NCBI RefSeq assembly: GCF_965641715.1 | Contig: NZ_OZ282453.1 | Reading direction: 5' to 3' (one strand) | DNA: 64,000 nucleotides | Source: Escherichia coli | Lineage (GTDB): Bacteria > Pseudomonadota > Gammaproteobacteria > Enterobacterales > Enterobacteriaceae | Shown here: positions 1 through 21,555 of the stretch, in pieces | Position numbering within the stretch: the stretch's first letter is position 1 | Layout: the number at the start of each line of letters is the position of its first letter | Program-made: the position numbers and the translations under genes | Notes under the pieces: generated by a model | What the model was told of the DNA's origin: nothing | The model's database searches: none | The model's input: only the letters and a program-made list of their open reading frames with translations

Positions 1-186
1 GCAGTAACACAGCCCAAAAATACCGTTGAACAAAGTCTTCTTGATCAGGTACTCATTTCAGAAAAAAACATATATACCGTTAATGGTTATGGCACTGATA
101 GTGATGTTCTGCAAGCCATGATTTCTGCTAAAATTGATAACAATGAATACCTTAAGCAATACGATATCAGCAAAAAGAAGGTATAG
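1..186 (+). CDS. 3' end of an unknown ORF (5' end outside window), AT-rich
   Basis: Open frame 1 from the window edge to TAG at 184-186; the next ORF starts 4 nt later. Confidence 0.3.
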   Translation, partial: AVTQPKNTVEQSLLDQVLISEKNIYTVNGYGTDSDVLQAMISAKIDNNEYLKQYDISKKKV

Positions 187-189
187 GAT

Positions 190-633: not shown

Positions 634-656
634 AAAGGGCAGAAATGCCCTTTTTT
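634..656. terminator. Rho-independent terminator hairpin between convergent genes
   Basis: GGGCA-GAAA-TGCCC stem-loop followed by TTTTTT, immediately after the TAA stop at 631-633. Confidence 0.5.
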
Positions 657-1034: not shown

Positions 1035-1036
1035 AA

Positions 1037-2032: not shown

Positions 2033-2033
2033 C

Positions 2034-2831
2034 TCAATGAACGGTATCGAGCAGCTTTAACAGCTCAGGGAATCGGGATTCGAAGAAATGCGGCTGCGTC
2101 TCGCGCGGATTTGCGGGACTGGTGATATTCTTGCCGAACATGCAGCCTTTCGCTGTCAGCGACCAGAATTTTTTGATGTTGTTAATCGCGGTACGGCTGT
2201 ATCGTTCGCGCTGCTCGACGATCCCCAGCTTCACCATCTGGTGATATGCCTGATTAGCTGTCAGGCGGATACCATACTGCTTCAGCAGTGCACTCAGTGA
2301 CAGCGTGGGGCGGCTTGAGCCATCAGGCGCGTCAGCAGGAGCATCAATGGCATAGCGCGGTGCCAGATTCGGTAAGCCAACAGCCTCCTGAAGCTTCTGA
2401 CAGGCTCCAAGCACTGATGAGTTAGACAGGTTTAATTCCCGGCGCATAAAGTCCAGCAGGATCACACCAGCCTGCATCTTGTCAGCAGCCTGTCCGGATA
2501 ATTTTTCCGGTGCGCTGGTTACCATGTCGAAAGTACGGATCACCTTCAGATGGAATGACGGGCTGATCCACATTGCATAGGCATACACCAGTTCTTTGCA
2601 GACATACGTCCCCTGGTTATTTCCGCCACGAATAACGTTAACTGGCTCTATATTGACCGAGTTGCAAATCTGCAACTCGCTTATTAAACGCTCAGTTTGC
2701 TCATTGCGGAGCCAGAATGCAGGCTTATGCTTATCCAGAGAACCAGCAGCCCTGTGCAGATCGTTCAGGCTGTAACGCCCATAAGCATCACGACGAACTT
2801 CAATACCATCAATAACCATCAGATTATTCAT
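2034..2831 (-). CDS. KilA-N domain protein (putative antirepressor)
   Basis: N-terminus VIDGIEVRRDAYGRYSLNDLHRAAG matches the KilA-N DNA-binding domain signature. Confidence 0.6.
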   Translation of the reverse strand: MNNLMVIDGIEVRRDAYGRYSLNDLHRAAGSLDKHKPAFWLRNEQTERLISELQICNSVNIEPVNVIRGGNNQGTYVCKELVYAYAMWISPSFHLKVIRTFDMVTSAPEKLSGQAADKMQAGVILLDFMRRELNLSNSSVLGACQKLQEAVGLPNLAPRYAIDAPADAPDGSSRPTLSLSALLKQYGIRLTANQAYHQMVKLGIVEQRERYSRTAINNIKKFWSLTAKGCMFGKNITSPANPRETQPHFFESRFPELLKLLDTVH

Positions 2832-2850
2832 ACTTCGTTTCTCCTCTTAA

Positions 2851-3240
2851 TCAGGCGGCTGCACCCGCCGGTTTCTCATACTTACTGATAGTGATCTCGA
2901 CCTTCCCTTTCGGGATAACCGGTCCCCACTCCACCAGCATTCTTTTCACCTGTCTGTCGTCTTCCCACACACCCGCGTGGGTCAGGGCGTCAAACAGCGC
3001 CTTGTTATAGTTGTCCAGATCGCGGATCCGGTTATCCGGAGGAAACAACACGATCTCCACTGAAGCAGGTGCCGACGTTGGTTTCGGCAGACGACGTAAC
3101 TGCTCAACTATTGCTGCGCATGCCGCGCTCTGGAATTTGCGCCCCGCTGCGCTTATCAGACTCTTACCAGCAAACGCCCCTTTGTTGGGGTGTCGCCAGT
3201 ACGTGTTCACGCTGGGCGGGAAAGGCAGGATCAGCTTCAT
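2851..3240 (-). CDS. rusA: Holliday junction resolvase RusA
   Basis: 129 aa; LPFPPSVNTYWRH ... IRDLDNYNKALFDALT motifs of the RusA family; lambdoid position upstream of Q. Confidence 0.75.
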   Translation of the reverse strand: MKLILPFPPSVNTYWRHPNKGAFAGKSLISAAGRKFQSAACAAIVEQLRRLPKPTSAPASVEIVLFPPDNRIRDLDNYNKALFDALTHAGVWEDDRQVKRMLVEWGPVIPKGKVEITISKYEKPAGAAA

Positions 3241-3596
3241 ACTTTCAGGCCCCTCTCATGTAACCAGTGGGCTGCACGCAGTCTGGCGTTTTCCTCACCG
3301 GCAAGCAGTGCGCGGATAATCCCGGCTGCCTCGCTGTCGTCGTCCTTCACTGTGGTATGAAGCGTGATACCCCGGGCCACGCCACGCTTTATCGTGATGA
3401 CGCCTTTTTTCTCCAGTGCGCGAAGATGCTCCACCGCTGCATTCACCGAACGGTATCCCAGCATGGCTGCCACCTCCTGATTGGTTGGCGGGAAACCACG
3501 TTCTTTCTGATAAGAAATCAGCATATCCAGCACCTGCTGCTGGCATTGAGTTAACGTCGTCATTAAGCCCCCACGTAATTCCCTGACAGATACCAC
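3237..3596 (-). CDS. LexA-like winged-helix DNA-binding protein (phage regulator)
   Basis: 119 aa; segment QQVLDMLISYQKERGFPPTNQEVAAMLGYRSVNAAVEHLRALEKKGVI resembles the LexA N-terminal DNA-binding domain. Confidence 0.4.
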   Translation of the reverse strand: MVSVRELRGGLMTTLTQCQQQVLDMLISYQKERGFPPTNQEVAAMLGYRSVNAAVEHLRALEKKGVITIKRGVARGITLHTTVKDDDSEAAGIIRALLAGEENARLRAAHWLHERGLKV

Positions 3597-4057
3597 TCAT
3601 CACCCGATACAGCGCGCTTGCTGCTTTTCCGTAAACACTGCTCACGACGCGCCAGAAAATTGTTTCGTTCTGGCTGGGAGTGGCTTTCACGGAATGCCGC
3701 CATCCACACCGTTGCAGCACGACGGTATAAGCCCCTGGACTCCAGTTCTTCAGCCTGGCGGGTCAGGCACAAAATCACACGGGGATCGTTAGTGCCGACA
3801 TAGAAATTGCGCACAGGTCTGGTTTCACGAACAGATTGTGGTTCCGGCTCCTGCGCTCTCTCAGTCAGGCGCGGGAAATGTCTGCGTGTATCTCCTTCAC
3901 AACGGTGAGCCACACGCCCACTCTGACGTAACTTGCTTGCTGACTGCAGAACGCGCTGCCGTGAGTAACCAGCAAAAGCATCCGCAATGTCTCCGGAAGT
4001 ACACCCCGGATGGGCTTCAATGAATTTCTGAACTTCATTCAAAAGACTCATAATCAC
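3563..4057 (-). CDS. PerC-family-like transcriptional activator (start codon uncertain)
   Basis: Motif AEELESRGLYRRAATVWMAAF resembles the recalled PerC/Pch signature (LE.KGLWRRAA.RW). Confidence 0.35.
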   Translation of the reverse strand: MIMSLLNEVQKFIEAHPGCTSGDIADAFAGYSRQRVLQSASKLRQSGRVAHRCEGDTRRHFPRLTERAQEPEPQSVRETRPVRNFYVGTNDPRVILCLTRQAEELESRGLYRRAATVWMAAFRESHSQPERNNFLARREQCLRKSSKRAVSGDEWYLSGNYVGA

Positions 4058-4872
4058 CCCCTGAATCCTGCCGGGATCTGGCTGTAGTCCACGTTGTCGT
4101 AACTGGCTTTGAAGTACGGGTCCTCGCGTCTGGCTGCAGATACCGCAGGAACTTCCCAGGATTCTTCGAAATGACGATCCGGACCAAAGAACGTGACAGC
4201 CTGTTTCACAAATTGTGTGCCGCTGTTACCCATCGCAGATACCCAGCCCGCGTAGCGTTTCACACCTTCCAGCATGGTTTCGGGGTTTACCCCCTCATTC
4301 AAACGGGCTTTCCAGGCTTTGAAGGCTGCAGATTTTGAATTACCACCAGCACGTTTGGGATATGCCAGCCATGCCTGCTCAAACTCCGGAGAGTATTCCG
4401 GCCGGTTTGAACGAACTCGCACGGACTCATCAACTGATGCACCAACAGCTATTGGTTCATTGACTGGTTCTTTGACTGGTTCAAAAGAGTGACTGGTTCT
4501 GGGTGAATCTCCTGCACTACCCCCTGGTGCAACTCCTGCACTACCTGGTGAATTTGCTGCACCAGATAGTGAATTATTTGCACTACCCCCTAGTGAATCT
4601 CCTGCACCATCCAGATGAAGGAGATAGATATTACTTGAGTTACCTTTTTCACCTTTCCGGGTGACTTTTTTTACCAGCCCGGACTCACAAAGGGCCGCAA
4701 TATGATTCATCACAGAACGTTTGCTAATCTCGCACTGGTCAGCAATATGCTGGTAGCTGGGCCAGCACTCACCCTGATCGCTGGCATTATCAGCCAGCTT
4801 GATCAGAACCAGTTTTCGCAATGGATTACCCACTCGAATTTTCATCGCTTTAACCATCAGCTCCATACTCAT
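4054..4872 (-). CDS. Phage replication-initiator-like protein with N-terminal HTH and low-complexity Gly/Ser/Ala linker
   Basis: 272 aa; N-terminal wHTH region (NPLRKLVLIKLADNASDQGECWPSYQHIADQCEISKRSVMNHIAAL); internal DNA repeats; lambda O-like position. Confidence 0.5.
   Translation of the reverse strand: MSMELMVKAMKIRVGNPLRKLVLIKLADNASDQGECWPSYQHIADQCEISKRSVMNHIAALCESGLVKKVTRKGEKGNSSNIYLLHLDGAGDSLGGSANNSLSGAANSPGSAGVAPGGSAGDSPRTSHSFEPVKEPVNEPIAVGASVDESVRVRSNRPEYSPEFEQAWLAYPKRAGGNSKSAAFKAWKARLNEGVNPETMLEGVKRYAGWVSAMGNSGTQFVKQAVTFFGPDRHFEESWEVPAVSAARREDPYFKASYDNVDYSQIPAGFRG
4500..4620. repeat. About five imperfect tandem 21-24 bp repeats inside the replication gene (iteron-like), followed by an AT-rich stretch
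   Basis: Repeated unit GTGAAT..CTGCACTACC(CC)CTG visible at 4503-4620; resembles the lambda ori layout within gene O. Confidence 0.45.
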
Positions 4873-5105
4873 GCTGCACCTCCGAGATGCTTCATGTTTT
4901 TTCCGGAGCGAAAGGTTATAAGCGGCATACTGACGCGGTAATTACGGCCCAGCGGTTCACAAATCACCTTCTGACATTCACGGTCCACCAGGCTAACACG
5001 TAGAACATGCCCTGCGGGCGTGGTGTACCACTGACCAACGGTAGGAATTGATGTTTTTTTACGCTGAAGCAAACGGCAAATATTGAGGATCAACGGATTA
5101 AGCAT
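4869..5105 (-). CDS. Small hypothetical phage protein
   Basis: 78-aa ORF overlapping neighbours by 4 and 8 nt in the same operon. Confidence 0.3.
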   Translation of the reverse strand: MLNPLILNICRLLQRKKTSIPTVGQWYTTPAGHVLRVSLVDRECQKVICEPLGRNYRVSMPLITFRSGKNMKHLGGAA

Positions 5106-5934
5106 GACGATGCCCTCCGCTGATATTCAGGAAACGGTGAATATGAAGATTAGCCTTATCCGCCAGACGAATACGTTCAGCCTGCAAGTTAAGAAGGGTT
5201 TCTACCAGAACCTGATGCGCCTGCGGATCCGAAAGAGTTACCTTGCGCAGAGCACGTAGTGCAGTTGTTACATAGCTGAGTTTATGTAAGTCTTCATCAT
5301 TCAGACGAGTGAGGGCTGGGACAGTAGCCATGATGGCAGCCTCCGTATGCAATGGATAACTTCCACCACCGGAAACGCCAATTTCGCTGGTGGTGAACTG
5401 AGCAGGGTTGGCGTAACCGGCGCATACGGAAACCGGCGCACCTTTCGGTGCCCCCACCCAGCCCACCATAATTTGGGTATAGCTGAGTTGTAGCAACAAA
5501 AAAGACGCTAACGCGCCAATTGTCGCCGTATGCAATTCCAGGACGCCAATCCCGGCACCCGCTTTATAAGGTGCCTGAACAGTGTAACGTCCCGGAATGG
5601 CAGAATCAATGTGCTGGTGGTCCTTCACACTCAACAAAATCACGCCTGAATTTCCACAAAGGGCTAAAGCACTCATGCGGGTAGTCTTTGCGAAGATAGA
5701 TAACGCGCTGTGTTTCTGGTTCCCAACGAATAACATGGACATAAAGCCCTCTTCCGTCACGAAACCAGCGGTTAAGTTCCCGCACAACTCGCCCCCCACA
5801 GTCAGGTAAAGTTCTCTGTGGTTACTTACAGCCAGGTGATTTGGTAATCTGCATTCATGCCGTAACAACAGGTGTTCAGCGACACTGACCACCAGCTGTT
5901 GCGACAAACGGTTATTTGCCGTTAAACTGTTCAT
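5098..5934 (-). CDS. Hypothetical phage protein (early right operon)
   Basis: 278-aa ORF, co-oriented and overlapping neighbours; no motif recognised. Confidence 0.35.
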   Translation of the reverse strand: MNSLTANNRLSQQLVVSVAEHLLLRHECRLPNHLAVSNHRELYLTVGGELCGNLTAGFVTEEGFMSMLFVGNQKHSALSIFAKTTRMSALALCGNSGVILLSVKDHQHIDSAIPGRYTVQAPYKAGAGIGVLELHTATIGALASFLLLQLSYTQIMVGWVGAPKGAPVSVCAGYANPAQFTTSEIGVSGGGSYPLHTEAAIMATVPALTRLNDEDLHKLSYVTTALRALRKVTLSDPQAHQVLVETLLNLQAERIRLADKANLHIHRFLNISGGHRHA

Positions 5935-6494
5935 GCGTTAGTTTCTCCACAGACACAAAACGCCACGACGCCCGGAGCTGCACACTCGCGGGCGTCACTC
6001 TTTTCTGGAGCGCAAAAGATTTTGTAGACCAGTGCTGCATGCTCTTGGAGCTTCGAAATTGACAGATACAACTCATCATTAATTGCTGTCTGCTCGTGTG
6101 GCTCCACGACCCCATCTTCGATTGCCGAACGAATCTGCTTTGAGTAATTCCCGATCTGTTCGATGACTTCCAGCAGGCGCTGGTTTATATCGGCGTTCTC
6201 TACTTCCTCAATTTCAGGAAGCGATACGAACACCCCACCAGCAGACTGTGCGACAGCATCCGCAATGTAGTGAGTGCCAGCCGCGCGCTGTAAAACCATT
6301 GCCCATCCCAGCGGGAAAATCTGATCGCCATCGGCACGAAGGCGGTTAAATAATGCGTTCTCTGTTACATCCAGCCAGTCAGCTGCTTCAGCGTAACCAC
6401 CCGGCAACGCTGCGATAGTTTTTCTGACAGCTTTCACGTACCACTCAGGCTGTTTTTCTACTTTCCAGTGATACTTACCCACGGTTAGCCTCAT
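5931..6494 (-). CDS. Hypothetical phage regulatory protein in the CII/YdaT position
   Basis: 187-aa ORF immediately downstream of the cro-like gene; function inferred from position only. Confidence 0.3.
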   Translation of the reverse strand: MRLTVGKYHWKVEKQPEWYVKAVRKTIAALPGGYAEAADWLDVTENALFNRLRADGDQIFPLGWAMVLQRAAGTHYIADAVAQSAGGVFVSLPEIEEVENADINQRLLEVIEQIGNYSKQIRSAIEDGVVEPHEQTAINDELYLSISKLQEHAALVYKIFCAPEKSDARECAAPGVVAFCVCGETNA

Positions 6495-6525
6495 CGTTCT
6501 GTGGTTAAAAATTGAAGGTGTTCTG

Positions 6526-6726
6526 TTAATCTTTCGGATAGATATCCGGCCTTAAGTCAGATTTCGTAATTGCACCTGACGTGCATTGCTCAAGTTTTTT
6601 CGCCAGCACAAAACTGGCTTTTTTATAACCATTGAAAACCAGCCGTAAGTAGCCAGGTGTTGAGCCAACTTTTCCGGCCAACTCGCCCTGCTGTTCTTTG
6701 GTTAAAGAGTCCCAATACGCTTTCAT
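6526..6726 (-). CDS. Cro/YdaS-like HTH regulator
   Basis: 66 aa from an internal ATG with GGAGG 9 nt upstream (the ORF track begins earlier); sequence MKAYWDSLTKEQQGELAGKVGSTPGYLRLVFNG; divergent from cI. Confidence 0.5.
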   Translation of the reverse strand: MKAYWDSLTKEQQGELAGKVGSTPGYLRLVFNGYKKASFVLAKKLEQCTSGAITKSDLRPDIYPKD

Positions 6727-6816
6727 ACAATATGTACCTCCGATATACATATTACATGATTGAAATGAACCTTCAAGATACTTGTACCTTATCGGTACAA
6801 AGGTTTTAATTTCGTT
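6727..6816. promoter_or_regulatory. cI/cro intergenic switch region with operator-like palindromes
   Basis: Inverted repeat CTTGTACC-TTATC-GGTACAAAG at 6781-6802 and further TGTAC-containing sites at 6727-6757. Confidence 0.45.
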
Positions 6817-7491
6817 ATGAAAACAATCCATGACATCCGGCGGTCTAACGCCAGAAAACTGAGAGATGGTGTTGGCGGGAATTCTTCCTTTGCCACCATG
6901 ATTGATCGCGAGCCAACCCAGACCAGCAGGTTTATGGGAGATGGTGCTACTAAAAATATCGGTGACAGCATGGCGCGGCACATCGAAAAATGTTTCGACC
7001 TGCCTGTCGGATGGCTTGATCAAGAACACCAGACCACGAACATCACAAAAAAACCTGATGTTTCAATCACTAACAAACAAATAACGTTAGTCCCTGTCAT
7101 ATCATGGGTACAGGCCGGAGCATGGAAAGAAGTTGGCTATTCTGAGGTTGATTTGAGCACAGCAGAAACTTACCCCTGCCCTGTACCCTGTGGCGAAATG
7201 ACTTATATCTTGCGGGTGATTGGTGATTCAATGATTGATGAGTACCGCCCTGGAGACATGATTTTTGTTGATCCCGAAGTCCCTGCCTGCCACGGTGACG
7301 ACGTTATTGCATTGATGCACGATACAGGCGAAACCACCTTCAAGCGATTGATAGAAGATGGAACACAGCGTTATCTCAAAGCATTAAACCCAAACTGGCC
7401 TGAGCCTTACATTAAGATTAACGGTAATTGCTCTATAATTGGTACAGTGATTTTCTCGGGAAAACCAAGAAGATACACAATAAAGGCCTAA
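6817..7491 (+). CDS. CI-like phage repressor (HTH plus S24 LexA-like peptidase domain)
   Basis: 224 aa; C-terminal ILRVIGDSMIDEYRPGDMIFVDP with the Ser-Lys dyad context of the S24 family. Confidence 0.75.
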   Translation: MKTIHDIRRSNARKLRDGVGGNSSFATMIDREPTQTSRFMGDGATKNIGDSMARHIEKCFDLPVGWLDQEHQTTNITKKPDVSITNKQITLVPVISWVQAGAWKEVGYSEVDLSTAETYPCPVPCGEMTYILRVIGDSMIDEYRPGDMIFVDPEVPACHGDDVIALMHDTGETTFKRLIEDGTQRYLKALNPNWPEPYIKINGNCSIIGTVIFSGKPRRYTIKA

Positions 7492-7949
7492 TCAATATTT
7501 ATGAACCTGCTTCGGCAGGTTTTTTTATACTTGACAATGTACCCATGGGATACATAATGTATCCAAAAGAAACATGAGGCAGGCAAGATTCAAACAAAAT
7601 TTGGTTGTAACACGGCGTATGGCACATGCGTCGTTAGCGGTCTGGGGACGTTAAAGGGGACAATCCACTTCTTGCTCGGGCAAACAAACCAGGTAGCCGG
7701 AATGTGCAAGTCAATGATGATGCTGATAAGACGCCTAACCAGCGTGGCGATCCGGTTTGACGCCTGGGAAGAGACCAGGGTGCAACGATGAGGGCATTTA
7801 TAGAGCCGCGACAAAGTGTGGTGCCGTAACTGGCTAAGTGCTCTCAGCGTTGTGGTAATCCGCGAAATGGCGCGGCGGTAAGTATGGCGGGGTTACTCTT
7901 TCCCCGTTGAGGACACCGGATTGTCAGGTTGACCATACGCCTGAGTGAC

Positions 7950-8025
7950 AACCCCACCACAACAGCCACTGCTTTGGCGGTACCAGTTTGTACACTTGCT
8001 TCCGGCTGGTACCGCTCTTTTTACA
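7950..8025 (+). ncRNA. DicF-like small RNA / terminator hairpin (approximate bounds)
   Basis: TTTGGCGGTACCAGTTT ... CTGGTACCGCT stem followed by CTTTTT; resembles the recalled DicF 3' structure in the analogous operon position. Confidence 0.3.
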
Positions 8026-8159
8026 AAACAGAGAAGAGCATCACCGGACGACGGGCTCATAACCCAATCCATCCGGGCGGCTGCCACCGCAGGTGTTCTT
8101 CTCTGTTTTGTGGAGAAACCAACCGACCTTGCAGGGTCGATATGATGAGGAGCAGCAAA

Positions 8160-8522
8160 ATGGCTAGCGAACGCAGTACTGATGTGCAGGCATTTATCGG
8201 GGAGCTGGACGGCGGCGTATTTGAAACCAAAATCGGCGCAGTTCTCAGTGAAGTCGCTTCCGGTGTGATGAACACGAAAACCAAAGGTAAGGTCTCACTC
8301 AACCTGGAAATCGAACCATTTGATGAGAACCGTGTGAAAATCAAACACAAACTCTCATATGTTCGCCCGACTAACCGCGGGAAAATTTCCGAAGAAGACA
8401 CCACCGAAACGCCGATGTATGTCAATCGCGGTGGTCGCCTGACTATTCTGCAGGAAGACCAGGGACAATTACTGACTCTTGCCGGTGAACCTGACGGAAA
8501 ACTCCGCGCAGCAGGTCATTAA
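8160..8522 (+). CDS. YfdP-like phage protein
   Basis: 120 aa from the ATG after GAGGAG; the ORF track starts earlier at 7929; first gene of the yfdP-T-like module. Confidence 0.4.
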   Translation: MASERSTDVQAFIGELDGGVFETKIGAVLSEVASGVMNTKTKGKVSLNLEIEPFDENRVKIKHKLSYVRPTNRGKISEEDTTETPMYVNRGGRLTILQEDQGQLLTLAGEPDGKLRAAGH

Positions 8523-8587
8523 TATCGTTCTTAATTAACTGATTATTTATCTCATCACTGAATATCTTTATATAGTGAGGACTTATT

Positions 8588-9412
8588 ATGTCTCAGAACT
8601 TAGACGCAACCGCAATTAATCAAATCCATGCCCTTATTTCTGCTCAGGGTGTTAATGAAATTATCAGTAATATTGGTGCCGATGCTGTGGCATTGCCTGA
8701 GAATTTCCGCATTCATGATCTGGAAAAATTTAATTTAAATCGCTTCCGTTTCCGTGGTGCGCTTTCCACTGCCAGCATCGATGACTTTACCCGTTATTCT
8801 AAAGATCTTGCAGATGAAGGCACCCGCTGCTTTATCGATGCTGATAATATGCGTGCCGTCAGTGTACTTAACCTGGGTACTATTGATGAACCAGGTCACG
8901 CAGATAACACCGCCACTCTCAAACTGAAAAAGACAGCACCGTTCTCTGCCCTGTTGTCTGTTAACGGCGAGCGTAACTCCCAGAAGTCACTGGCAGAATG
9001 GATTGAAGACTGGGCCGACTACCTTGTGGGCTTTGATGCTAATGGTGACGCTATTCAGGCAACAAAAGCGGCTGCGGCAGTCCGTAAAATCACGATTGAA
9101 GCAAACCAGACCGCTGATTTTGAAGATAATGACTTCAGCGGCAAACGCTCCCTGATGGAGTCTGTCGAAGCGAAGACCAAAGACATTATGCCAGTGGCAT
9201 TTGAATTTAAATGCGTTCCGTTTGAAGGTCTGAAAGAACGTCCGTTTAAATTACGCCTCAGCATTATCACTGGCGATCGTCCTGTACTGGTTCTGCGCAT
9301 TATTCAGCTGGAGGCGGTGCAGGAAGAAATGGCTAACGAATTTCGTGATCTGCTTGTTGAGAAATTCAAGGACAGCAAAGTAGAAACCTTTATTGGTACT
9401 TTCACCGCCTGA
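8588..9412 (+). CDS. YfdQ-like protein (DUF2303 family)
   Basis: 274 aa; length and sequence match recalled K-12 CPS-53 YfdQ. Confidence 0.5.
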
Positions 9413-9539
9413 TTTCATTACTGCAAATGCCCCTGCGGGGGCATTTATGGAAACGTAATTTACTCAATAATCGCCGGATGGTGAGGGATTCTTTTTACCA
9501 GAATTCAGCGCGGTGCAGCGCATATACGTGGAGAACAAA

Positions 9540-10076
9540 ATGTCATTTATCAAAACTTTTTCTGGGAAGCATTTTTATTATGACAGGATAAATAAAGACG
9601 ACATCGATATTAACGATATCGCGGTTTCCCTTTCAAATATCTGTCGCTTTGCCGGTCATCTTTCGCACTTCTACAGCGTCGCCCAACATGCGGTTCTTTG
9701 CAGCCAGCTGGTGCCGCAGGAATTTGCTTTTGAAGCGTTAATGCATGATGCAACAGAAGCGTATTGCCAGGACATTCCCGCACCACTGAAACGCCTTCTT
9801 CCTGACTATAAACGGATGGAAGAAAAAATAGACGCCGTAATCCGTGAGAAATACGGGTTACCCCCGGTTATGAGTACACCCGTGAAATATGCCGATCTCA
9901 TCATGCTGGCAACCGAACGCCGCGATCTCGGGCTTGATGATGGCTCTTTCTGGCCTGTACTGGAAGGCATCCCGGCAACAGAGATGTTCAACGTGATTCC
10001 ACTGGCACCGGGCCATGCCTACGGGATGTTTATGGAACGTTTTAACGATTTATCGGAGTTACGCAAATGCGCATGA
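9540..10076 (+). CDS. HD-domain 5'-deoxynucleotidase (YfdR-like)
   Basis: 178 aa starting MSFIKTFSGKHFYYD; HD motif region HFYSVAQHAV ... MHDATEAY. Confidence 0.6.
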   Translation: MSFIKTFSGKHFYYDRINKDDIDINDIAVSLSNICRFAGHLSHFYSVAQHAVLCSQLVPQEFAFEALMHDATEAYCQDIPAPLKRLLPDYKRMEEKIDAVIREKYGLPPVMSTPVKYADLIMLATERRDLGLDDGSFWPVLEGIPATEMFNVIPLAPGHAYGMFMERFNDLSELRKCA

Positions 10077-10429
10077 ATGTTTTCGAAATGGAAGGGTTTC
10101 TTCGCGGGAAATGTGTACCGCGAGATCTGAAAGTGAACGAAACAAATGCTGAGTACCTGGTACGTAAATTCGACGCGCTTGAAGCTAAATGTGCGGCACT
10201 GGAAAACAAAATAATACCAGTGTCAACTGAACTGCCACCAGCAAATGAAAGTGTTCTGTTATTTGATGCTAATGGAGAAGGCTGGCTGATTGGCTGGCGT
10301 TCTCTCTGGTACACCTGGGGACAAAAAGAAACCGGAGAATGGCAGTGGACATTTCAGGTCGGGGACCTTGAAAACTTCAATATCACTCACTGGGCAGTAA
10401 TGCCCAAAGCGCCGGAGGCTGGAGCATAA
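10067..10429 (+). CDS. YfdS-like phage protein
   Basis: 120 aa; overlaps neighbours by 10 nt and 1 nt, suggesting coupled translation. Confidence 0.4.
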   Translation: MRMNVFEMEGFLRGKCVPRDLKVNETNAEYLVRKFDALEAKCAALENKIIPVSTELPPANESVLLFDANGEGWLIGWRSLWYTWGQKETGEWQWTFQVGDLENFNITHWAVMPKAPEAGA

Positions 10430-11049
10430 TGACCACATTTACCAATAAAGAACTGATTAAAGAAATCAAAGAACGAATCAGCAGCCTAGAGGTTCGAGAC
10501 GATATTGAGCGCCGTGCTTATGAAATTGCTCTGGCATCGCTGGAAGAGGAGCCGGTGGCATGGCTGCATTCAGACAATGGCTTAGGTATTCCGGCAATAA
10601 CCAGGAGCAAAAACATTGCTGACAGTTGGTTATCAATGGGCTGGTATGTTCAGCCGCTATATATAGCCAAGCCAGTACTGGTGGTGCCAGATGCTCGTCC
10701 GTCTTTAAATAATGGCATAGTCGGTTTTGATGAAGGCTGGAACGCCTGCCGCGCCACCATGCTTCATGGTGCCAAACCTGTAAGCCAGACTTACAAGTTG
10801 AACAAGCTGCCGGGCAACTCTCCGGTAACTCAGGATGGTTGGATAAGCTGTAGTGAGCGAATGCCGAACGATAAACAGTATGTTTGGTGTTGGGGTAAGT
10901 CTTACGGCTGGACTGAGTGCGATACCTTCGAAGGGTATTACGATTGGTCGAGAAACAAATGGTGGGCAGTTACTGACGATGGGGAAGAACCGGCATCGAA
11001 AGTAACCCACTGGATGCCGCTACCGGAGCCACCGCAGGAGGTGAAGTAA
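10429..11049 (+). CDS. Phage protein with DUF551-like C-terminus (YfdT-like)
   Basis: 206 aa; C-terminal WWAVTDDGEEPASKVTHWMPLPEPP resembles DUF551. Confidence 0.4.
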   Translation: MTTFTNKELIKEIKERISSLEVRDDIERRAYEIALASLEEEPVAWLHSDNGLGIPAITRSKNIADSWLSMGWYVQPLYIAKPVLVVPDARPSLNNGIVGFDEGWNACRATMLHGAKPVSQTYKLNKLPGNSPVTQDGWISCSERMPNDKQYVWCWGKSYGWTECDTFEGYYDWSRNKWWAVTDDGEEPASKVTHWMPLPEPPQEVK

Positions 11050-11243
11050 TGAACAACTTAATGACAACTAAACAAGTCGCCGACTTCTGTGGCGTTTCAG
11101 TATCGACCGTTCTTCGCTGGAACAGCGTAAACAGGAGAACTGGCCAGAAATACAGGCCTGACTTTCCAGATCCTGATATTAAATCCTGCCCAAATAAATG
11201 GGCATCACGCAAGATATACAGGTTTGCTGGAGTTATTGAGTGA
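11049..11243 (+). CDS. AlpA-family HTH protein / putative excisionase
   Basis: 64 aa; TTKQVADFCGVSVSTVLRWN HTH typical of AlpA/Xis-like regulators; lies upstream of the int region. Confidence 0.55.
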   Translation: MNNLMTTKQVADFCGVSVSTVLRWNSVNRRTGQKYRPDFPDPDIKSCPNKWASRKIYRFAGVIE

Positions 11244-11278
11244 TGGGTATTAGCTCATATCAGAACTAATACCCATCA
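11241..11278. promoter_or_regulatory. Perfect 13-bp inverted repeat immediately after the xis-like stop codon
   Basis: TGATGGGTATTAG-N12-CTAATACCCATCA; no T-run follows, so a protein-binding site or RNA stem is as likely as a terminator. Confidence 0.3.
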
Positions 11279-11445
11279 ATGACACAGAGCCAACTACCCA
11301 CCCTGTGTCAGGGGCTAACTTTTAACACCATAATTCACCGCTAGATAAAAACTGTATTGCATTGCACGAGCGGCGCAGCATTATCAGTTAGAGTGTCTTT
11401 ACCTTGTTAGGCTCCACAGTTCGCACTGTCCAACGCCTGTCACTT

Positions 11446-14400
11446 TCACACGCTGCGCCTTCGAGAATATTCATTTAATCGCTGATAACGAACATCTTGC
11501 TCCAGTTGTGGAGCAGCTTGAACAATTTGAAGCAAGCATTGCCCCAACTCTCGAGGCCCCCAGTGTTGTTCGGCAATCACGGCATTCAGCAGGGATAGAG
11601 CGTCCGCAGGATATCGGCTGCAAATATCTGATTCTAGCAAAAGGCGAACGTCGTAGCTAAGGTGTTCGAGCGGTTGCAGCCAGTCCTGCACCACTGCCAA
11701 AGCCGCCGGAAATTCACCTCGGGCAGCAATCACCATACGAGTCAACGATTCGGATATGCGTGGGGTGGCCAAGTTGCGGGACTTTGGCCAAACCTGTTGC
11801 CAAAATGGCTGGACACGATTTTTCCAATACTCCTCGCGCTGATCGCCCGCACCTTCAAGTGCCTGGTATAACGCCTGCGCGGCTACCTCCAGACCTTCTT
11901 GTGGAAGAGCACTAATTGCCGTTCGGAACTCCTCCACGGTATATCCCTCGGTAGGGCCCAGAGCTGCATAAGTCAGGAAAATAGCGAATTGCTGCCGGTG
12001 CTCGCCAAGATCAGAATAGTGATTGGCGCTCTCCAAAAAATCTGACTTGAAAGCTATCAGCAACGGTTCATACAGGCGTGGCGACCAGAGGAAGCCTTCC
12101 CACACAGCTTTTGCTTCGACGGGATTACTCCAAGCAAACAAGGGCAATAGATACTGTTCGGTCCAAGGTCGATCTACGCGAAAAAATGCGATCAGCCGCG
12201 ACCCCAGCAACACCCGACCATGGCGGAATAGCTCTATCTGTACATTACACAATTTGGTGAAAAGTGTTTTCAATTCAACAGGAAGCAAATCATTGTCATT
12301 CGGGTTCTGTTTGAACCATAGGGTGATCAGTGATTGCGTGACATGCCCAATGGGATGATTGATCGCCGTAGAAACAGGATCATAGGTCTCAATTCCGTTT
12401 CGAATGGTGCTAGACTCTGGGCTTGTTTCTATCATCAGAACCCGACGACAAAGGGCCAGTAGAATCTCCTCGTGGCAGAGGATGGTCTTCGAAGCCTCCT
12501 CCATCCACCAAGTGACAGCGTGGGAAATCTCCTGAAGTACTGCGTCAGGCATGTCAAGCACCAACGGTGCGGCGTACCGCCACGAACGCAAAATCATCCC
12601 TGGTTCAGCCCAAGTCTGCAGAGCTTCACGCCACCGACCAACAGGCCACACATCATCTTGTGATAGTTTACGTAACGCATACAGACTGTGAAAAAAGCGC
12701 GTACGGCAAACATCACTCCAAGTGTCCTCATAGAAAGGCAGTCTTTCTGGCATAGGCTTTGCGAGCCATTGCACTAATTCCTGCCACTTACGGGGCGCAA
12801 TGTCGACATCTATACTCTCCTCGAAGCCTGGATCACCGGTTCCGCTCATCCAGTGAGAGAATTCATCACGCTCGTTGGTTGCCAGTTGCCATTTTGGGTA
12901 TGCTGTGGATATTTCCGTCAAACGTGTAGCCGCAGACTCTCCCAAAACAAGGCCCGCTCCCCTGAGCTTCTCTAGACACAACCAGACGGAATGAGCCACC
13001 AAATAATGCCACCTGTCTGCTTCCAAATTATCCTCGTACATCTCGCGCGGAGGCCCTGCCAAGATAGCAGTTTCCAGACGCTCTTGTGCAATTCCTGTCA
13101 GATGTCGTCCCTGCAAAACAAACAGTCTGAATACCTCTCGCCGAGTATCCGTGGCCCACAACCACCATGAACCGTCCTCTAACAACCAATTAACCCACCG
13201 CTCAGGTGGTATGCAGTTGTCTTGGCTTGCGGCAAACAGTGCCAGACGTTTGAAGGTGGGATATGGCAACTCAAACCAATTCTGAGCAATGCGCGAGGCC
13301 TGATCGCTGTCTTTGGCTCGAACGGCTAACCATGAATCCCGAAGTAATTCAATCAGGCTCACCCAATCGCGGAACCCCCGGTTCTGCCAGTGCGGAGTGA
13401 TGGACGGCAAATCCCAATGCGAGCGGTCGTGACGATCGTCGGACTCTCCCAACTCCCGCAACAAGTCCAGTGCATCACGCAACAACTGCTGAAAATCTTC
13501 CAACAGGTATGGCAAGGACGATTTCCATGACTCGTCAGCAAGGTCGAACAGGGTTGAACGTACGTAATCAGCAGTCAGCACCAGCTCCCAATCCACCAAT
13601 TGCTTGATTCGCAAGGGTTCATCAGTGCTGCTCGAATCGTCTTCACTATAGCGAAACGGCCGCCTCAACATAACCTTGGGAGAAAGCAACTCGCGTAACT
13701 CCAAGCGCAATGTAGTCGTCAAGCCTTCATTCTTTAAGCGGTTTTGCCAACGATACAAATCCAGGTTCTGCAATGGCGATTTCACACGACCACTAAGCAG
13801 AAGCCGCCATAAAGTAGACATAGGTGGACCAGGAATAGCCAGGGGGGAATGCAAGAGAATTTCATCTAACTCAGAAGTCTTACGCTCCCGCATCAGTGCT
13901 GCTAAGCGATCTAGTTCGCTCTCAATCAGAAACATCCAACGGTCGTGTATTTGTCCGCCGCGTTCAGCAATCCATATGATCAACCTAGGGTCGCCCAGAT
14001 AACGAACTAGCCAACGGGCTATATGGGACATTACGTCATCCCATTTGCTAGCACTGACACATCCAGAAACCAGCGACATCTGCGGGGCCAGCTCATAGGG
14101 CGCAGGACGCTGAACCAGACTGAATCGGAGTTTCGGGTCAATTTCGACATGCGGAGATACACAAAAGCGTGGCAGATCGCTGTATTTAAATCGTTCGTCC
14201 GAGAAAGCTTTCAATAACCAATCCAGCGGCGGTGCAGGATTGAGTTCCGCAAAGCGTTTTGCTGGTAAACCTGATTTATCTGACAAGGCCCACAACATCC
14301 GACCAACGAAATCGTCCTGACGAGTGCTGTCCTGCGGGCGGGCCAGAGCATGTTTGACGACTATAGCCTCTTTGCCCTGTATACCATCTCGATAAGTATC

Positions 14401-15273
14401 TGCCCAAGCGTGCAACGTTTGATGCAGCACTGAATGATCAGTGGAGCTCGCCGGTACGGTGTAAAGGATAGGAGTGACCCCTTTGGCCTCCCACTCGATG
14501 GCTTTCCGGTGCTCCTGCCCCGGCTCACACTCCCCCAGTGCCCATACTTGTGGTGTGACTTCACCGAGCCTCCGATCTGCTGCAAGCGCATCCATCATGT
14601 AGCGCAGTACCGGGTCGTTGATGCTGTAGCCAACGAAGCAGACCACATAGTTACGAAATAACTCACTCACAAAGCGAGCTGCCCAACGCTCAGTGAGATA
14701 AGCCAAGCCAAAGTCACCGCTGGTAACAACCAGACGATTCAGGGCAGTATCATCCGCCTTTTCCGGTAACAGCCCATGCAGGTATACAAGTCCATCCCAG
14801 CGGCTGTTTTTTGGAATTGGCAGCATCGGCGCTACATAGGCCTGAAAAGCCTGGCCTGTACGTTTAGCTGCCACATGAAAGAGACGGTCAAAGTTGGTAG
14901 TGACCAATCGAAGGGCACCCTCGCGGCTACGGGCTAAACGTAACAGCGCCGCCTGAGTATCAATAGCGCCCCTACGACGGAGCTTTGGCTTAAGGGCTTT
15001 TTCCAACGCGCGTCGGACGGCTATACGCTGCCCTGGTAAGCGCCGTTCCAGCAAATCTAATGTGCCGTCAAATTGCCCACGCTCGAAAACCTCACGCTCA
15101 ATTTCTGAAAGTGTTGTTCCGTTCCTCTGGTAAATTAGTTCTACCAACCCTTTGAAACCAGGTAAACCAGCAGGGTAGGAAATGCCTGCTCCACAGAAGA
15201 ACACAACGCGCCCTTCCTCGTGCGCCTGCAAAAGCTCATCAGGAATATCAGGGCCGTTGGTAATGAATTGCAT
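11446..15273 (-). CDS. Large SIR2-like domain protein (N-terminal SIR2-type NADase-like domain plus about 1000-aa C-terminal domain of unknown function); candidate anti-phage defence protein
   Basis: 1275-aa ORF; N-terminal motifs VVFFCGAGISYPAGLP, VTTNFDRL, VYLHG, VCFVGYSINDP; no P-loop seen downstream; sits between xis-like and int. Confidence 0.6.
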   Translation of the reverse strand: MQFITNGPDIPDELLQAHEEGRVVFFCGAGISYPAGLPGFKGLVELIYQRNGTTLSEIEREVFERGQFDGTLDLLERRLPGQRIAVRRALEKALKPKLRRRGAIDTQAALLRLARSREGALRLVTTNFDRLFHVAAKRTGQAFQAYVAPMLPIPKNSRWDGLVYLHGLLPEKADDTALNRLVVTSGDFGLAYLTERWAARFVSELFRNYVVCFVGYSINDPVLRYMMDALAADRRLGEVTPQVWALGECEPGQEHRKAIEWEAKGVTPILYTVPASSTDHSVLHQTLHAWADTYRDGIQGKEAIVVKHALARPQDSTRQDDFVGRMLWALSDKSGLPAKRFAELNPAPPLDWLLKAFSDERFKYSDLPRFCVSPHVEIDPKLRFSLVQRPAPYELAPQMSLVSGCVSASKWDDVMSHIARWLVRYLGDPRLIIWIAERGGQIHDRWMFLIESELDRLAALMRERKTSELDEILLHSPLAIPGPPMSTLWRLLLSGRVKSPLQNLDLYRWQNRLKNEGLTTTLRLELRELLSPKVMLRRPFRYSEDDSSSTDEPLRIKQLVDWELVLTADYVRSTLFDLADESWKSSLPYLLEDFQQLLRDALDLLRELGESDDRHDRSHWDLPSITPHWQNRGFRDWVSLIELLRDSWLAVRAKDSDQASRIAQNWFELPYPTFKRLALFAASQDNCIPPERWVNWLLEDGSWWLWATDTRREVFRLFVLQGRHLTGIAQERLETAILAGPPREMYEDNLEADRWHYLVAHSVWLCLEKLRGAGLVLGESAATRLTEISTAYPKWQLATNERDEFSHWMSGTGDPGFEESIDVDIAPRKWQELVQWLAKPMPERLPFYEDTWSDVCRTRFFHSLYALRKLSQDDVWPVGRWREALQTWAEPGMILRSWRYAAPLVLDMPDAVLQEISHAVTWWMEEASKTILCHEEILLALCRRVLMIETSPESSTIRNGIETYDPVSTAINHPIGHVTQSLITLWFKQNPNDNDLLPVELKTLFTKLCNVQIELFRHGRVLLGSRLIAFFRVDRPWTEQYLLPLFAWSNPVEAKAVWEGFLWSPRLYEPLLIAFKSDFLESANHYSDLGEHRQQFAIFLTYAALGPTEGYTVEEFRTAISALPQEGLEVAAQALYQALEGAGDQREEYWKNRVQPFWQQVWPKSRNLATPRISESLTRMVIAARGEFPAALAVVQDWLQPLEHLSYDVRLLLESDICSRYPADALSLLNAVIAEQHWGPRELGQCLLQIVQAAPQLEQDVRYQRLNEYSRRRSV

Positions 15274-15455
15274 TCCTTTTCCTCCTATCCAATGTGCACG
15301 TTCATTCGAGTAAATGAAGGCAAGGGGTTACATCTTATTATACCGACCGTGCAAATCCGGCTTCCTAGCAAGCTACTTTACTTGCCAACTCATAATGTCC
15401 GAACTCCGAACAAAGCGGACTGCTAGATTTGATTGCGTTCTAGCTACGCAAAATA

Positions 15456-16679
15456 TCATTTCGAGCCTGAACGAGTACAAGTAACAATCGATTCAACTCT
15501 CTCCCACCATGCCTGGTAGGCTTTACGCTGTTCTTCTAGATAATCACTCTTGTCATAAACTTGCCATACACCTGGCAGTTTATGACCGAGCATTATTTCA
15601 GCAATATGAGGCGCAGTAAGATCAGAAAAGTTTGTTCGTGCTGTTCGTCTCAAATCATGAAGAGACCAATGAGGAAATTGATACCCCAAACGCCGCCATG
15701 CGTACTGCATTAAATTGTAAGGCAGCGACTGCAATGATGTCCGACCAACTGGTTCCCTGCTTCCTTCCTTAGTAAAAAGCATATCGGAACCGTTGTTCAT
15801 AGAGATAACGTATTTTATAAGCTCTTCAACCGGTTCAATAATGGGCCGCTTTAGCGGTTTGCCTGTTATATCCCCTGTCTTATGTCGTTCTGGTGGTACA
15901 GTCCATATTTTATTAATGAAATCAAAATCGTCCACCTTGGCAGTAATTAGCTCTGAACTACGGCAACCAAAATGCAGCAATAGTTTAATGAAGGCCCGGT
16001 ATTTAGGAACCATTCGAGAACCATCGATCGCAGCATAAAGGATTTTAATTTCATCATGTGTCAGAAACCGTTTCTTCTGACCTTTACGGATATCCATATC
16101 TTTACCCGTGATATCCGACAGCGGGCGAGTTTCAATGAGCTTTCTCTTATACGCCCAGACATGGGCCTGCTTTGCGTTAATTAGCAATCGGTCTGCTATT
16201 GCTGGAGTCTTAGTGCTAAGAGGCTCCAGGACTTCTAACCAATCATGCAATGTAGCTGCATCGTGAGGGATATTCCCGATTTTAGAGAACAGGTGCAGCT
16301 CAAACGAGCGGAGTATCTGTTCAGAACCTTTTTTATTTTTTACACAATATGCTTCATACCAAGCACGGATCACAGATTCTACCGTCATGGCTTCAGTAGC
16401 TTTACGTTTTTCTGCCAGCTTGACCAATCGTGGATTGCGGTTTGACTCGAGTTCACCACGAAGACGGATAACTTCTTCTCTGGCCTCTTTTAGTCCAGTT
16501 GCCGGGTAAGTTCCGATATCAAGACGCTCACCTTTCCCCGCCCACTGATAACGATATTGGAACACTACGCGACCTTTCGGTGATACTCTAACAGACAGAC
16601 CATCACGATCGGATTTAACCAAAACCTTATCACGTTCCTTTCCAACGACTGAACGCAACCACGCATCAGACAGCGCCAT
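15456..16679 (-). CDS. int: Tyrosine recombinase / phage integrase with N-terminal arm-binding domain
   Basis: 407 aa; N-terminus typical of P4/CP4-57-like integrases; catalytic region with HDLRRT and LGHK motifs. Confidence 0.85.
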   Translation of the reverse strand: MALSDAWLRSVVGKERDKVLVKSDRDGLSVRVSPKGRVVFQYRYQWAGKGERLDIGTYPATGLKEAREEVIRLRGELESNRNPRLVKLAEKRKATEAMTVESVIRAWYEAYCVKNKKGSEQILRSFELHLFSKIGNIPHDAATLHDWLEVLEPLSTKTPAIADRLLINAKQAHVWAYKRKLIETRPLSDITGKDMDIRKGQKKRFLTHDEIKILYAAIDGSRMVPKYRAFIKLLLHFGCRSSELITAKVDDFDFINKIWTVPPERHKTGDITGKPLKRPIIEPVEELIKYVISMNNGSDMLFTKEGSREPVGRTSLQSLPYNLMQYAWRRLGYQFPHWSLHDLRRTARTNFSDLTAPHIAEIMLGHKLPGVWQVYDKSDYLEEQRKAYQAWWERVESIVTCTRSGSK

Positions 16680-16685
16680 TACTCA

Positions 16686-16750
16686 CCTTGTACAAATAAC
16701 AAAAAACCTCTGCTGTTTTGTACATTATGTACAAGCACATGTACAGATTT
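16686..16750. promoter_or_regulatory. Cluster of TTGTACA motifs, including a perfect palindrome, upstream of int; possible operator, arm site or att-proximal region
   Basis: TTGTACA at 16688; TTGTACAttaTGTACAA at 16717-16733; TGTACA at 16740; AT-rich region 16680-16900. Confidence 0.35.
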
Positions 16751-17064
16751 TTGATGAAAGTAACCTGATCAATTTAAAGTTACATGAAAGAATTTTCAAT
16801 CAAAGAAATCACATAACATCATGTTATTAAATGAGTTATATAATTATTACTCAATTAATTGAAAGGATTTTGAAAGAGTAAAAGAGCTTTTATTTGGGCT
16901 TAATTATTGGGGTGAGAAATAATGGCAAAAGTGCGGCGCTTCGCCACCTCTTGCAAATAAGGAGACAACGTCATAATTCTTTCTTCTTGAGTAAGCGGCA
17001 TCGCGCCGCGCTTGTTGAAAACGAAAAATTGCGGCTATTTTACCCATCAACGGGGGGGAGGCAA

Positions 17065-18687: not shown

Positions 18688-19719
18688 ATGTCTGCATTTA
18701 CCCCGGCAAGTGAAGTCTTGCTGCGTCACAGTGATGATTTCGAACAAAGCCGTATTCTGTTTGCCGGAGACTTACAGGATGACCTGCCCGCGCGTTTAGA
18801 TACCGCGGCCAGCCGTGCTCATACCCAGCAATTCCACCACTGGCAGGTATTAAGCCGCCAGATGGGGGATAACGCCCGTTTCAGTCTGGTCGCTACGGCG
18901 GATGACGTCGCAGATTGCGATACTTTGATTTACTACTGGCCGAAGAACAAACCGGAAGCCCAGTTCCAGTTGATGAATTTACTTTCTCTGCTGCCAGTGG
19001 GGACAGATATTTTTGTCGTTGGCGAGAACCGCAGCGGCGTGCGCAGCGCCGAGCAGATGCTGGCAGATTATGCGCCGTTGAATAAAGTCGACAGCGCTCG
19101 TCGCTGTGGACTCTATTTTGGTCGTCTGGAAAAACAGCCAGTATTTGATGCGGAGAAATTCTGGGGCGAATACAGCGTCGATGGCCTGACGGTCAAAACG
19201 CTGCCTGGCGTGTTTAGCCGCGACGGTCTGGATGTCGGTAGCCAGTTGCTGCTCTCGACGTTAACTCCGCACACGAAAGGTAAAGTGCTGGATGTCGGCT
19301 GTGGCGCGGGTGTGCTTTCAGTTGCCTTTGCGCGCCATTCGCCGAAAATTCGTCTCACCTTGTGCGATGTCTCTGCCCCGGCGGTAGAAGCCAGCCGCGC
19401 AACACTTGCGGCCAACGGTGTTGAAGGTGAAGTCTTTGCCAGCAACGTCTTTTCCGAGGTGAAAGGTCGTTTTGATATGATCATCTCCAACCCGCCGTTC
19501 CACGATGGGATGCAAACCAGCCTGGATGCGGCGCAAACGCTGATTCGCGGCGCGGTGCGTCATCTTAATAGCGGCGGCGAGCTGCGAATTGTAGCGAACG
19601 CCTTCCTGCCTTACCCGGACGTGCTGGATGAGACATTTGGCTTCCACGAAGTGATCGCGCAAACAGGGCGATTCAAGGTATATCGCGCCATTATGACCCG
19701 CCAGGCGAAGAAAGGTTAA
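18688..19719 (+). CDS. rsmC: 16S rRNA (guanine1207-N2)-methyltransferase RsmC
   Basis: 343 aa; SAM-methyltransferase motif [12 protein letters not shown] and NPPFH motif. Confidence 0.85.
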
Positions 19720-19735
19720 GTATCTGATATCTGTC

Positions 19736-19905
<170 letters not shown>

Positions 19906-20028
19906 TAGTCTCCTGATGGACATTTTTCCAGCAATTACACATCAGGCGATAATTAACTATTGACGAAAAGCTGAAAACCACTAGAATGCGCCTCCGTGGT
20001 AGCAATTCTTTTTAAGAATTGATGGTAT

Positions 20029-20115
20029 GCGAAGGTGGCGGAATTGGTAGACGCGCTAGCTTCAGGTGTTAGTGTCCTTACGGACGTGGGGGTTCAAGTC
20101 CCCCCCCTCGCACCA
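20029..20115 (+). tRNA. leuQ: tRNA-Leu (anticodon CAG)
   Basis: 87-nt sequence GCGAAGGTGGCGGAATTGGTAGACGCG ... CCCTCGCACCA; anticodon loop CTTCAGGTG. Confidence 0.9.
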
Positions 20116-20143
20116 AAAACCACGTTGATATTGCTCGCACTGG

Positions 20144-20230
20144 GCGAAGGTGGCGGAATTGGTAGACGCGCTAGCTTCAGGTGTTAGTGTTCTTACGGAC
20201 GTGGGGGTTCAAGTCCCCCCCCTCGCACCA
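20144..20230 (+). tRNA. leuP: tRNA-Leu (anticodon CAG), one substitution relative to the flanking copies
   Basis: 87-nt copy; variable-arm difference GTGTTCTTACGG versus GTGTCCTTACGG. Confidence 0.9.
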
Positions 20231-20264
20231 AACGAGGCGATATCAAAAAAAGTAAGATGACTGT

Positions 20265-20351
20265 GCGAAGGTGGCGGAATTGGTAGACGCGCTAGCTTCA
20301 GGTGTTAGTGTCCTTACGGACGTGGGGGTTCAAGTCCCCCCCCTCGCACCA
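20265..20351 (+). tRNA. leuV: tRNA-Leu (anticodon CAG)
   Basis: 87-nt copy identical to the first. Confidence 0.9.
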
Positions 20352-20389
20352 ATTATCTTTACTTCCTTTCTTGTTTCTTCCCTGTTTTG

Positions 20390-20626
20390 TCATCCCTGAT
20401 TCAAATTCATTATCATCAGCATGATGCCAGCAATAAGCGCCAGGCACGATGGTAGCAAAATGTAATGCCGCAACTGTTTGTGATACAGCATCACCGGCGT
20501 CAATACTAATCCCATCAGAATGACAATCCGCCACTGATCCGGCGATAAATCCGCATACATCAGCCCTGCAATCAGCAATCCCGGCAGCAACACTCCCCAG
20601 CCACTGCCCAGCGTACGTTGCAACAT
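20390..20626 (-). CDS. yjjZ: Small membrane protein YjjZ
   Basis: 78 aa from internal ATG (MLQRTLGSGWGVLLPGLLIAGL); the ORF track extends upstream. Confidence 0.55.
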   Translation of the reverse strand: MLQRTLGSGWGVLLPGLLIAGLMYADLSPDQWRIVILMGLVLTPVMLYHKQLRHYILLPSCLALIAGIMLMIMNLNQG

Positions 20627-20766
20627 GGTTTCATCTCTTTCATTGATAATGATAACCAATATCATATGATAATTTTTATCATTTGCAAGCCAGAGAAATC
20701 CCTTGCTATCGGGTAAACCTATCGCTAGGATTAGCAATCATTATCATTTAGATTACTATCCCGATT

Positions 20767-21555
20767 ATGGCCTATCGTTCCGCACCGCTCTATGAAGATG
20801 TCATCTGGCGAACACATCTCCAGCCGCAGGATGCTGGGCTTGCACAAGCCGTACGGGCGATGATCGCCGAACATCGTGAACATTTGCTCGAGTTTATCCG
20901 CCTGGATGAACCCGCTCCGCTTAACGCCATGACGCTGGCGCAATGGTCATCACCGAATGCGCTAAGTTCTCTACTCGCGGTCTATTCCGATCATATCTAT
21001 CGCAACCAACCAACGATGATCCGCGAGAACAAACCGCTGATCTCACTATGGGCACAATGGTATATCGGCCTGATGGTGCCACCATTAATGCTGGCGCTAC
21101 TGACGCAGGAAAAAGCATTAGATGTGTCGCCGGAACATTTCCATGCTGAGTTTCACGAAACCGGACGCGTCGCCTGTTTCTGGGTCGATGTGTGTGAAGA
21201 TAAAAACGCAACACCACATTCGCCGCAGCAGCGAATGGAAACGTTAATCAGCCAGGCGCTGGTTCCGGTTGTGCAAGCACTAGAAGCGACCGGAGAGATC
21301 AACGGCAAACTTATCTGGAGTAATACCGGTTATTTGATCAACTGGTATCTCACTGAGATGAAGCAACTGCTCGGCGAGGCTACTGTTGAATCGCTGCGCC
21401 ATGCCCTCTTTTTTGAGAAAACGCTCACGAACGGTGAAGATAATCCACTCTGGCGTACCGTGGTACTGCGCGACGGCCTGCTGGTGCGCCGCACTTGCTG
21501 CCAGCGTTATCGCTTACCGGATGTGCAGCAATGTGGCGATTGTACGCTGAAATGA
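20767..21555 (+). CDS. fhuF: Ferric-siderophore reductase FhuF (2Fe-2S)
   Basis: 262 aa; C-terminal C-C-x10-C-x2-C cluster (RRTCCQRYRLPDVQQCGDC). Confidence 0.8.
   Translation: MAYRSAPLYEDVIWRTHLQPQDAGLAQAVRAMIAEHREHLLEFIRLDEPAPLNAMTLAQWSSPNALSSLLAVYSDHIYRNQPTMIRENKPLISLWAQWYIGLMVPPLMLALLTQEKALDVSPEHFHAEFHETGRVACFWVDVCEDKNATPHSPQQRMETLISQALVPVVQALEATGEINGKLIWSNTGYLINWYLTEMKQLLGEATVESLRHALFFEKTLTNGEDNPLWRTVVLRDGLLVRRTCCQRYRLPDVQQCGDCTLK

Follow-up and report, generated by a model that had tools for sequence, protein, structure and literature searches.

The three tandem tRNA genes at positions 20029 to 20351 of the 64 kb stretch of Escherichia coli DNA analyzed here (the window) almost certainly form the canonical leuQ-leuP-leuV operon of this species, with transcription and processing presumed to follow those of K-12 given the identity of the two sequences; the sequence offers nothing that speaks against this assignment. 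Between position -40 of the promoter and a point 30 nt beyond the third gene, the window is 100% identical to K-12 MG1655 leuQ-leuP-leuV, and the same genes flank the array in both, in agreement with the operon assignment made in an earlier sequence-only reading. The feature as a whole is already known, and the observation that drew attention to it is correct and ordinary.

ARAGORN found exactly three tRNA genes in the window, all of them tRNA-Leu(CAG) of 87 nt with the cag anticodon placed at position 35 (3/3 genes). It returned the boundaries and anticodon that the sequence-only reading had given for three tandem tRNA-Leu(CAG) genes. The genes and the spacers between them are as follows.

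20029-20115, + strand: leuQ, tRNA-Leu(CAG) with C48, called by ARAGORN, copy alignment and Rfam; identical to K-12 leuQ.
20116-20143, + strand: leuQ-leuP spacer (spacer 1), 28 nt, identical in K-12.
20144-20230, + strand: leuP, tRNA-Leu(CAG) with T48 (window position 20191), the variant copy, called by ARAGORN and copy alignment; identical to K-12 leuP.
20231-20264, + strand: leuP-leuV spacer (spacer 2), 34 nt, from K-12 comparison, minimum free energy (MFE) fold and pair counts.
20265-20351, + strand: leuV, tRNA-Leu(CAG) with C48, called by ARAGORN, copy alignment and Rfam; identical to K-12 leuV.

Each gene scored 48.5 bits with the Rfam tRNA model RF00005 (gathering score, 29), and the gene starts lie 115 and 121 bp apart, which bears out the spacing of about 115-120 bp described earlier. 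Alignment of the three copies revealed a single variable column, position 48, which reads C, T and C, so that the middle copy does carry, as had been noted, one C-to-T change in the variable arm. This arm is long and has its own stem-loop, with a 4-bp stem (46-49 with 54-57) and a 4-nt loop. All three genes end in ...TCGC-A-CCA, i.e., discriminator A73 followed by an encoded CCA; A73 is an identity element for LeuRS. Given their identity with K-12 tRNA-Leu1, these tRNAs would be charged with leucine and would decode CUG.

A 47-nt gene probe matched the window three times at up to 3 mismatches and was never found in 100 shuffles of the window. Tandem Repeats Finder reported the tRNA region as a period-121 array of 2.7 copies, and the earlier warning against mistaking the genes for a repeat array was thus justified. 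Taken at face value, this call would make the region some generic tandem repeat, or an element of another repeat-based kind, and not a set of functional tRNA genes. However, every unit holds a complete class II tRNA according to both ARAGORN and the Rfam tRNA model, the two spacers bear no relation to each other in sequence, and the corresponding K-12 units are annotated as leuQ, leuP, and leuV, with transcripts and processing that have been studied (PMC2190699, PMC7049720). These observations refute the repeat-element reading, to which we attach practically no probability, in favor of three genuine tRNA genes.

In the annotation of K-12 MG1655, leuV, leuP, and leuQ lie on the minus strand and are transcribed in the order leuQ, leuP, leuV (b4370, b4369, and b4368), so copies 1, 2, and 3 of the window correspond to leuQ, leuP, and leuV in transcription order. 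The leader, the genes, both spacers, and T48 all match the K-12 operon. The window departs from K-12 only in the surroundings of the operon: a third REP element, absent from K-12, adds 33 nt between rsmC and the promoter, and a small number of bases are substituted upstream of -40 and past +30 of the trailer. The operon is flanked by the following genes.

18688-19719, + strand: rsmC, upstream flank.
20390-20626, - strand: yjjZ, downstream flank, convergent with the tRNA genes.
20767-21555, + strand: fhuF, downstream flank.

This rsmC, array, yjjZ, and fhuF layout is common to the window, K-12, A30, and PT109. When 1.2 kb spanning the genes was used as query, 5425 of 5426 complete E. coli genomes matched, and the annotated features among the matches listed were rsmC, three tRNA-Leu genes, yjjZ, and fhuF. 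The window is E. coli chromosome, and its best match over 24 kb was to strain PT109 and its relatives (99.2%). K-12 carries four tRNA-Leu1 (CAG) genes, three being leuQ, leuP, and leuV and the fourth leuT. The latter belongs to the mixed tRNA operon argX-hisR-leuT-proM at another locus, and its mature sequence equals that of leuQ and leuV, including C48; ARAGORN showed no leuT in the window.

We considered whether the T in the middle copy could be a strain-specific mutation, a sequencing error, or the mark of a decaying pseudogene. It is the sole difference among three otherwise identical copies, and it lowers the stability of the computed cloverleaf by 2.9 kcal/mol, from -30.0 (C48) to -27.1 kcal/mol (T48), both of which would fit such a reading. 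Yet K-12 leuP carries the same T48, C48 being the base of K-12 leuQ and leuV and of the unlinked leuT, and the difference has been described in the literature (PMC12472396). The variant thus characterizes the operon, for which it has been published, and not the strain. In the variable-arm stem, the change replaces the C48-G55 pair by a U.G wobble and leaves all stem positions paired, so that it should be tolerated, and the other 86 positions are intact, including the acceptor stem, the anticodon, the discriminator A, and the CCA end of leuP. The same base is also found in most complete E. coli genomes: an 88-nt query made of spacer 1 and the first 60 nt of leuP, T48 included, matched without mismatch (identity of at least 99%) in 4526 of 5429 matching E. 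coli records, and the single imperfect record that we read had a SNP in the spacer and kept T48.

The survey was then extended beyond E. coli, one genome per species being scanned for three variable arms in tandem spacing with C or T at position 48. It yielded 39 loci from other Enterobacteriaceae species, covering Escherichia, Salmonella, Citrobacter, Klebsiella, Raoultella, Kosakonia, Enterobacter, Pluralibacter, Trabulsiella, Phytobacter, Franconibacter, and others. The C-T-C pattern was present in 34 loci, next to two C-C-C, two C-C-T, and one T-T-C, and the middle copy carried T in 35 of the 39 species. Apart from one substitution in E. albertii and the length of a C run, the tRNA bodies were otherwise invariant across the survey. 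Conservation across strains and genera refutes a strain mutation, and mutation, error, or pseudogene decay can be considered a highly improbable origin for T48. We infer instead that the leuP base is a tolerated isodecoder difference, old and stable between paralogues.

The C run just mentioned occupies positions 72-79 of the tRNA genes, across the T arm and acceptor region, and counts eight C, with 7, 9, or more in several public assemblies. Length variants were seen at loci L005, L022, L024, L026, L035, L038, and L043, and for L022, L024, L026, L035, L038, and L043, an apparent multi-base divergence of the tRNA was rejected as a frame shift caused by these C-run lengths. The variants may be either homopolymer assembly errors or real slippage; the eight-C run has been reported as the foremost hotspot of indels in the tRNA genes of E. 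coli (PMC8510543).

The number of copies in the array was counted in complete E. coli genomes by means of queries spanning the spacer junctions. A 441-nt whole-array query was rejected for this use because joined pieces give single-copy loci a coverage of 87%. The spacer 1 junction was found (coverage of at least 80%) in 4976 of 5425 matching genomes and the spacer 2 junction in 4984, and about 8% of complete genomes lacked both. Two such loci were read, in O157:H7 strain SS17 and in the urinary isolate EcPNK006; each consisted of a single C48 gene with the same promoter and trailer, the outcome expected of unequal exchange between leuQ and leuV. O157:H7 Sakai RIMD 0509939 also lacked the spacer 2 junction, and strain 2015C-4136CT1 contained a two-copy array reading T then C, a rare form. 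The Nissle 1917 record CP007799 (C, T, and T, with a truncated third copy) was left out, as its flanks of IS and pseudogene fragments look like an assembly problem. The window thus represents the majority form among E. coli, and the species survey also points to this form as ancestral.

Outside the tRNAs, the parts of the presumed transcription unit are the following.

19960-19995, + strand: promoter with -35 TTGACG, a 16-nt spacer, -10 TAGAAT, and the G+C-rich discriminator GCGCCTCC, predicted by scan and K-12 identity.
19996-20028, + strand: 5' leader of the predicted primary transcript, whose start would lie at about 19994-19996; contains a hairpin.
20352-20391, + strand: 3' trailer, unstructured and pyrimidine-rich, the presumed region of Rho-dependent termination, from composition and terminator scan.

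The -35/-10 site (19960-19987) was the best promoter-like site in the scan, a sigma-70-like one with 10 of 12 matches, and is a prediction; the same scan reported no promoter-like sites in the two leuQPV spacers. Among the Enterobacteriaceae loci with recovered upstream sequence, the -10 and the discriminator are invariant and the -35 nearly so. We take this to be a stable-RNA promoter under stringent and growth-rate control, and presumably also under control by Fis. At the other end of the operon, the first 40 nt of the trailer comprise 24 T, 10 C, 3 G, and 3 A, and the terminator scan found no intrinsic-terminator-like hairpin on the + strand after leuV. The trailer abuts the stop codon of yjjZ, with 38 nt between the tRNA operon and the 3' end of yjjZ, and 40 nt past leuV falls at about window position 20391, at this stop codon. 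The + strand GC skew is negative throughout the window and the operon therefore lies head-on to replication, an orientation reported for K-12 (PMC8510543).

In K-12, the leuQPV precursor, a single transcript, is separated by RNase P alone, independently of RNase E (PMC2190699, PMC7049720). Past leuV, it ends in an unstructured terminator that depends on Rho and is then trimmed by PNPase and RNase II (PMC2190699). As the sequences are identical, these steps can be carried over to the window. A single precursor for all three genes would start from the promoter at 19960-19987 and would stop in a Rho-dependent manner about 40 nt past leuV. Cleavage by RNase P at the 5' end of each tRNA would separate the tRNAs without RNase E, and the tail would be removed by PNPase and RNase II before exonucleases trim the encoded CCA ends. 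The window contains no U directly after the CCA of leuQ and leuP (CCAAAAACC and CCAAACGAG), an absence already remarked in processing work on K-12 (PMC2190699 and PMC7049720). By contrast, the operon that contains leuT is processed by RNase E (PMC2190699). A closer parallel is valV-valW, also a tandem tRNA operon separated by RNase P only, with an unstructured Rho-dependent terminator removed by PNPase and RNase II (PMC2190699), but encoding a different tRNA, in two genes with a 4-nt spacer.

An MFE fold of the presumed primary transcript placed two structures in the precursor outside the tRNAs, and pair counts were made on 37 Enterobacteriaceae sequences.

20003-20021, + strand: leader hairpin CAATTCTT-TTT-AAGAATTG, from the MFE fold and the 37-sequence alignment.
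20126-20137, + strand: 5' arm of a helix enclosing leuP, TGATATTGCTCG, in spacer 1, from the MFE fold.
20233-20245, + strand: 3' arm of the helix enclosing leuP, CGAGGCGATATCA, in spacer 2, from the MFE fold.

The seven pairs of the leader hairpin were 99.2% paired across the 37 sequences, and two of the seven showed compensatory double changes (GC/AU 31:6 and AU/UA 21:15), so that its standing as a conserved structure is reasonably supported. The helix joining spacer 1 to spacer 2 around leuP has 12 bp with one bulged G. Counted over 11 pairs (the outermost U-A omitted), it was 98% paired, and no double-sided change was seen among these 11 pairs in the 37 sequences. One column pair varies appreciably, with U.G in 19, C-G in 11, and U-A in 7 sequences and never C.A; our hypergeometric calculation puts the chance of zero C.A at about 0.06. 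Kosakonia oryzendophytica lacks the 3' arm. Conservation of the spacer-spacer helix is thus only suggestive.

The 16S and 23S rRNAs are enclosed by leader-trailer helices in the transcripts of rRNA operons. The leuP helix resembles these in that complementary flanks pair around a stable-RNA gene, but those of rRNA are longer and serve as substrates of RNase III, whereas the leuP helix amounts to 12 bp with one bulge and its role is only a candidate one; published work finds RNase P sufficient for the leuQPV transcript. The leuP helix and the leader hairpin may be functional parts of the precursor, acting as folding insulators against mispairing or setting the order of RNase P cleavage, with U48 perhaps belonging to the same adaptation, a proposal that we regard as tentative and unlikely. 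The literature examined contained no description of either structure as a functional part of the precursor.

A related addition to the main reading would be that U48 is kept by selection and gives the middle tRNA, or its precursor, a role distinct from those of leuQ, leuV, and leuT, one that might concern the folding or the processing order of a transcript with three identical tRNAs. The C-T-C pattern persists over many genera, and leuP is also the copy enclosed by the conserved spacer-spacer helix. However, T48 is in the majority in 33 of 37 sequences (0.89), a proportion that ordinary spacer columns of this alignment equal or exceed (0.88-0.96), giving no signal of selection at this position, and the sampled species are too close for persistence of the base to be evidence of selection. 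Moreover, the T has been moved or lost in five lineages (the C-C-C, C-C-T, and T-T-C loci above), and leuP itself is gone from the roughly 8% of E. coli genomes with collapsed arrays, the two single-copy arrays read keeping C48. We thus consider selection on U48 unlikely, and the operon reading stands without it.

The surroundings of the operon offered several further observations. Between rsmC and the leuQPV promoter lies a REP/BIME cluster (19722-19908) of three REP units in + / - / + orientation, with a 76-nt direct duplication (19722-19797 and 19833-19908, 83% identical). An Rfam match to naRNA4, a family built on a REP pair, covers 19807-19889 on the - strand (73 bits; gathering score, 59.5). 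On the other side, the tRNA operon, which we regard as strongly transcribed, converges on the 3' end of yjjZ, and the divergent yjjZ-fhuF intergenic region (20627-20766) contains several GATAAT/ATCATT-type motifs (e.g., GATAATGATAACCAATATCATATGATAATTTTTATCATT) that, by eye, look like candidate Fur boxes. A match to the SymR antitoxin RNA at 57926-58002 (- strand, 93.1 bits, Rfam) implies a symE/symR locus.

The window also contains one end of a prophage (1-16975), next to the conserved backbone and upstream of yjjG, with two large open reading frames.

11446-15273, - strand: 1275-aa ORF, annotated as the anti-phage defence sirtuin Dsr1 in near-identical PT109.
15456-16679, - strand: tyrosine integrase ORF of 407 aa, at the prophage end.

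A short prfC fragment (about 16906-16974) abuts the prophage, which suggests integration into prfC. The tRNA array was rejected as the attachment site, since the prophage abuts the prfC fragment 3 kb away and yjjG, rimI, holD, and rsmC stand between prophage and array. Within the prophage, at 5386-5574 on the - strand, Rfam matched a C4 antisense RNA (80.7 bits) next to isrK (61.2 bits), a pair characteristic of phage immunity or antirepressor regions, which fits a prophage.

CUG, which is read by tRNA-Leu(CAG), is the most used codon of E. coli. The leuQPV operon is the source of most of the tRNA for this codon and a textbook case of processing by RNase P only, and for annotation, its genes should be labeled leuQ, leuP, and leuV and not as a repeat array, nor should the T of the middle gene be recorded as a mutation. 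Taken together, these results show that the leuP difference arose before the main Enterobacteriaceae genera diverged and that the array has collapsed to one gene in some 8% of the complete genomes of E. coli, O157:H7 among them. If the proposed insulation by the precursor structures is true, the three tRNAs, identical in sequence, would be prevented from mispairing among themselves.
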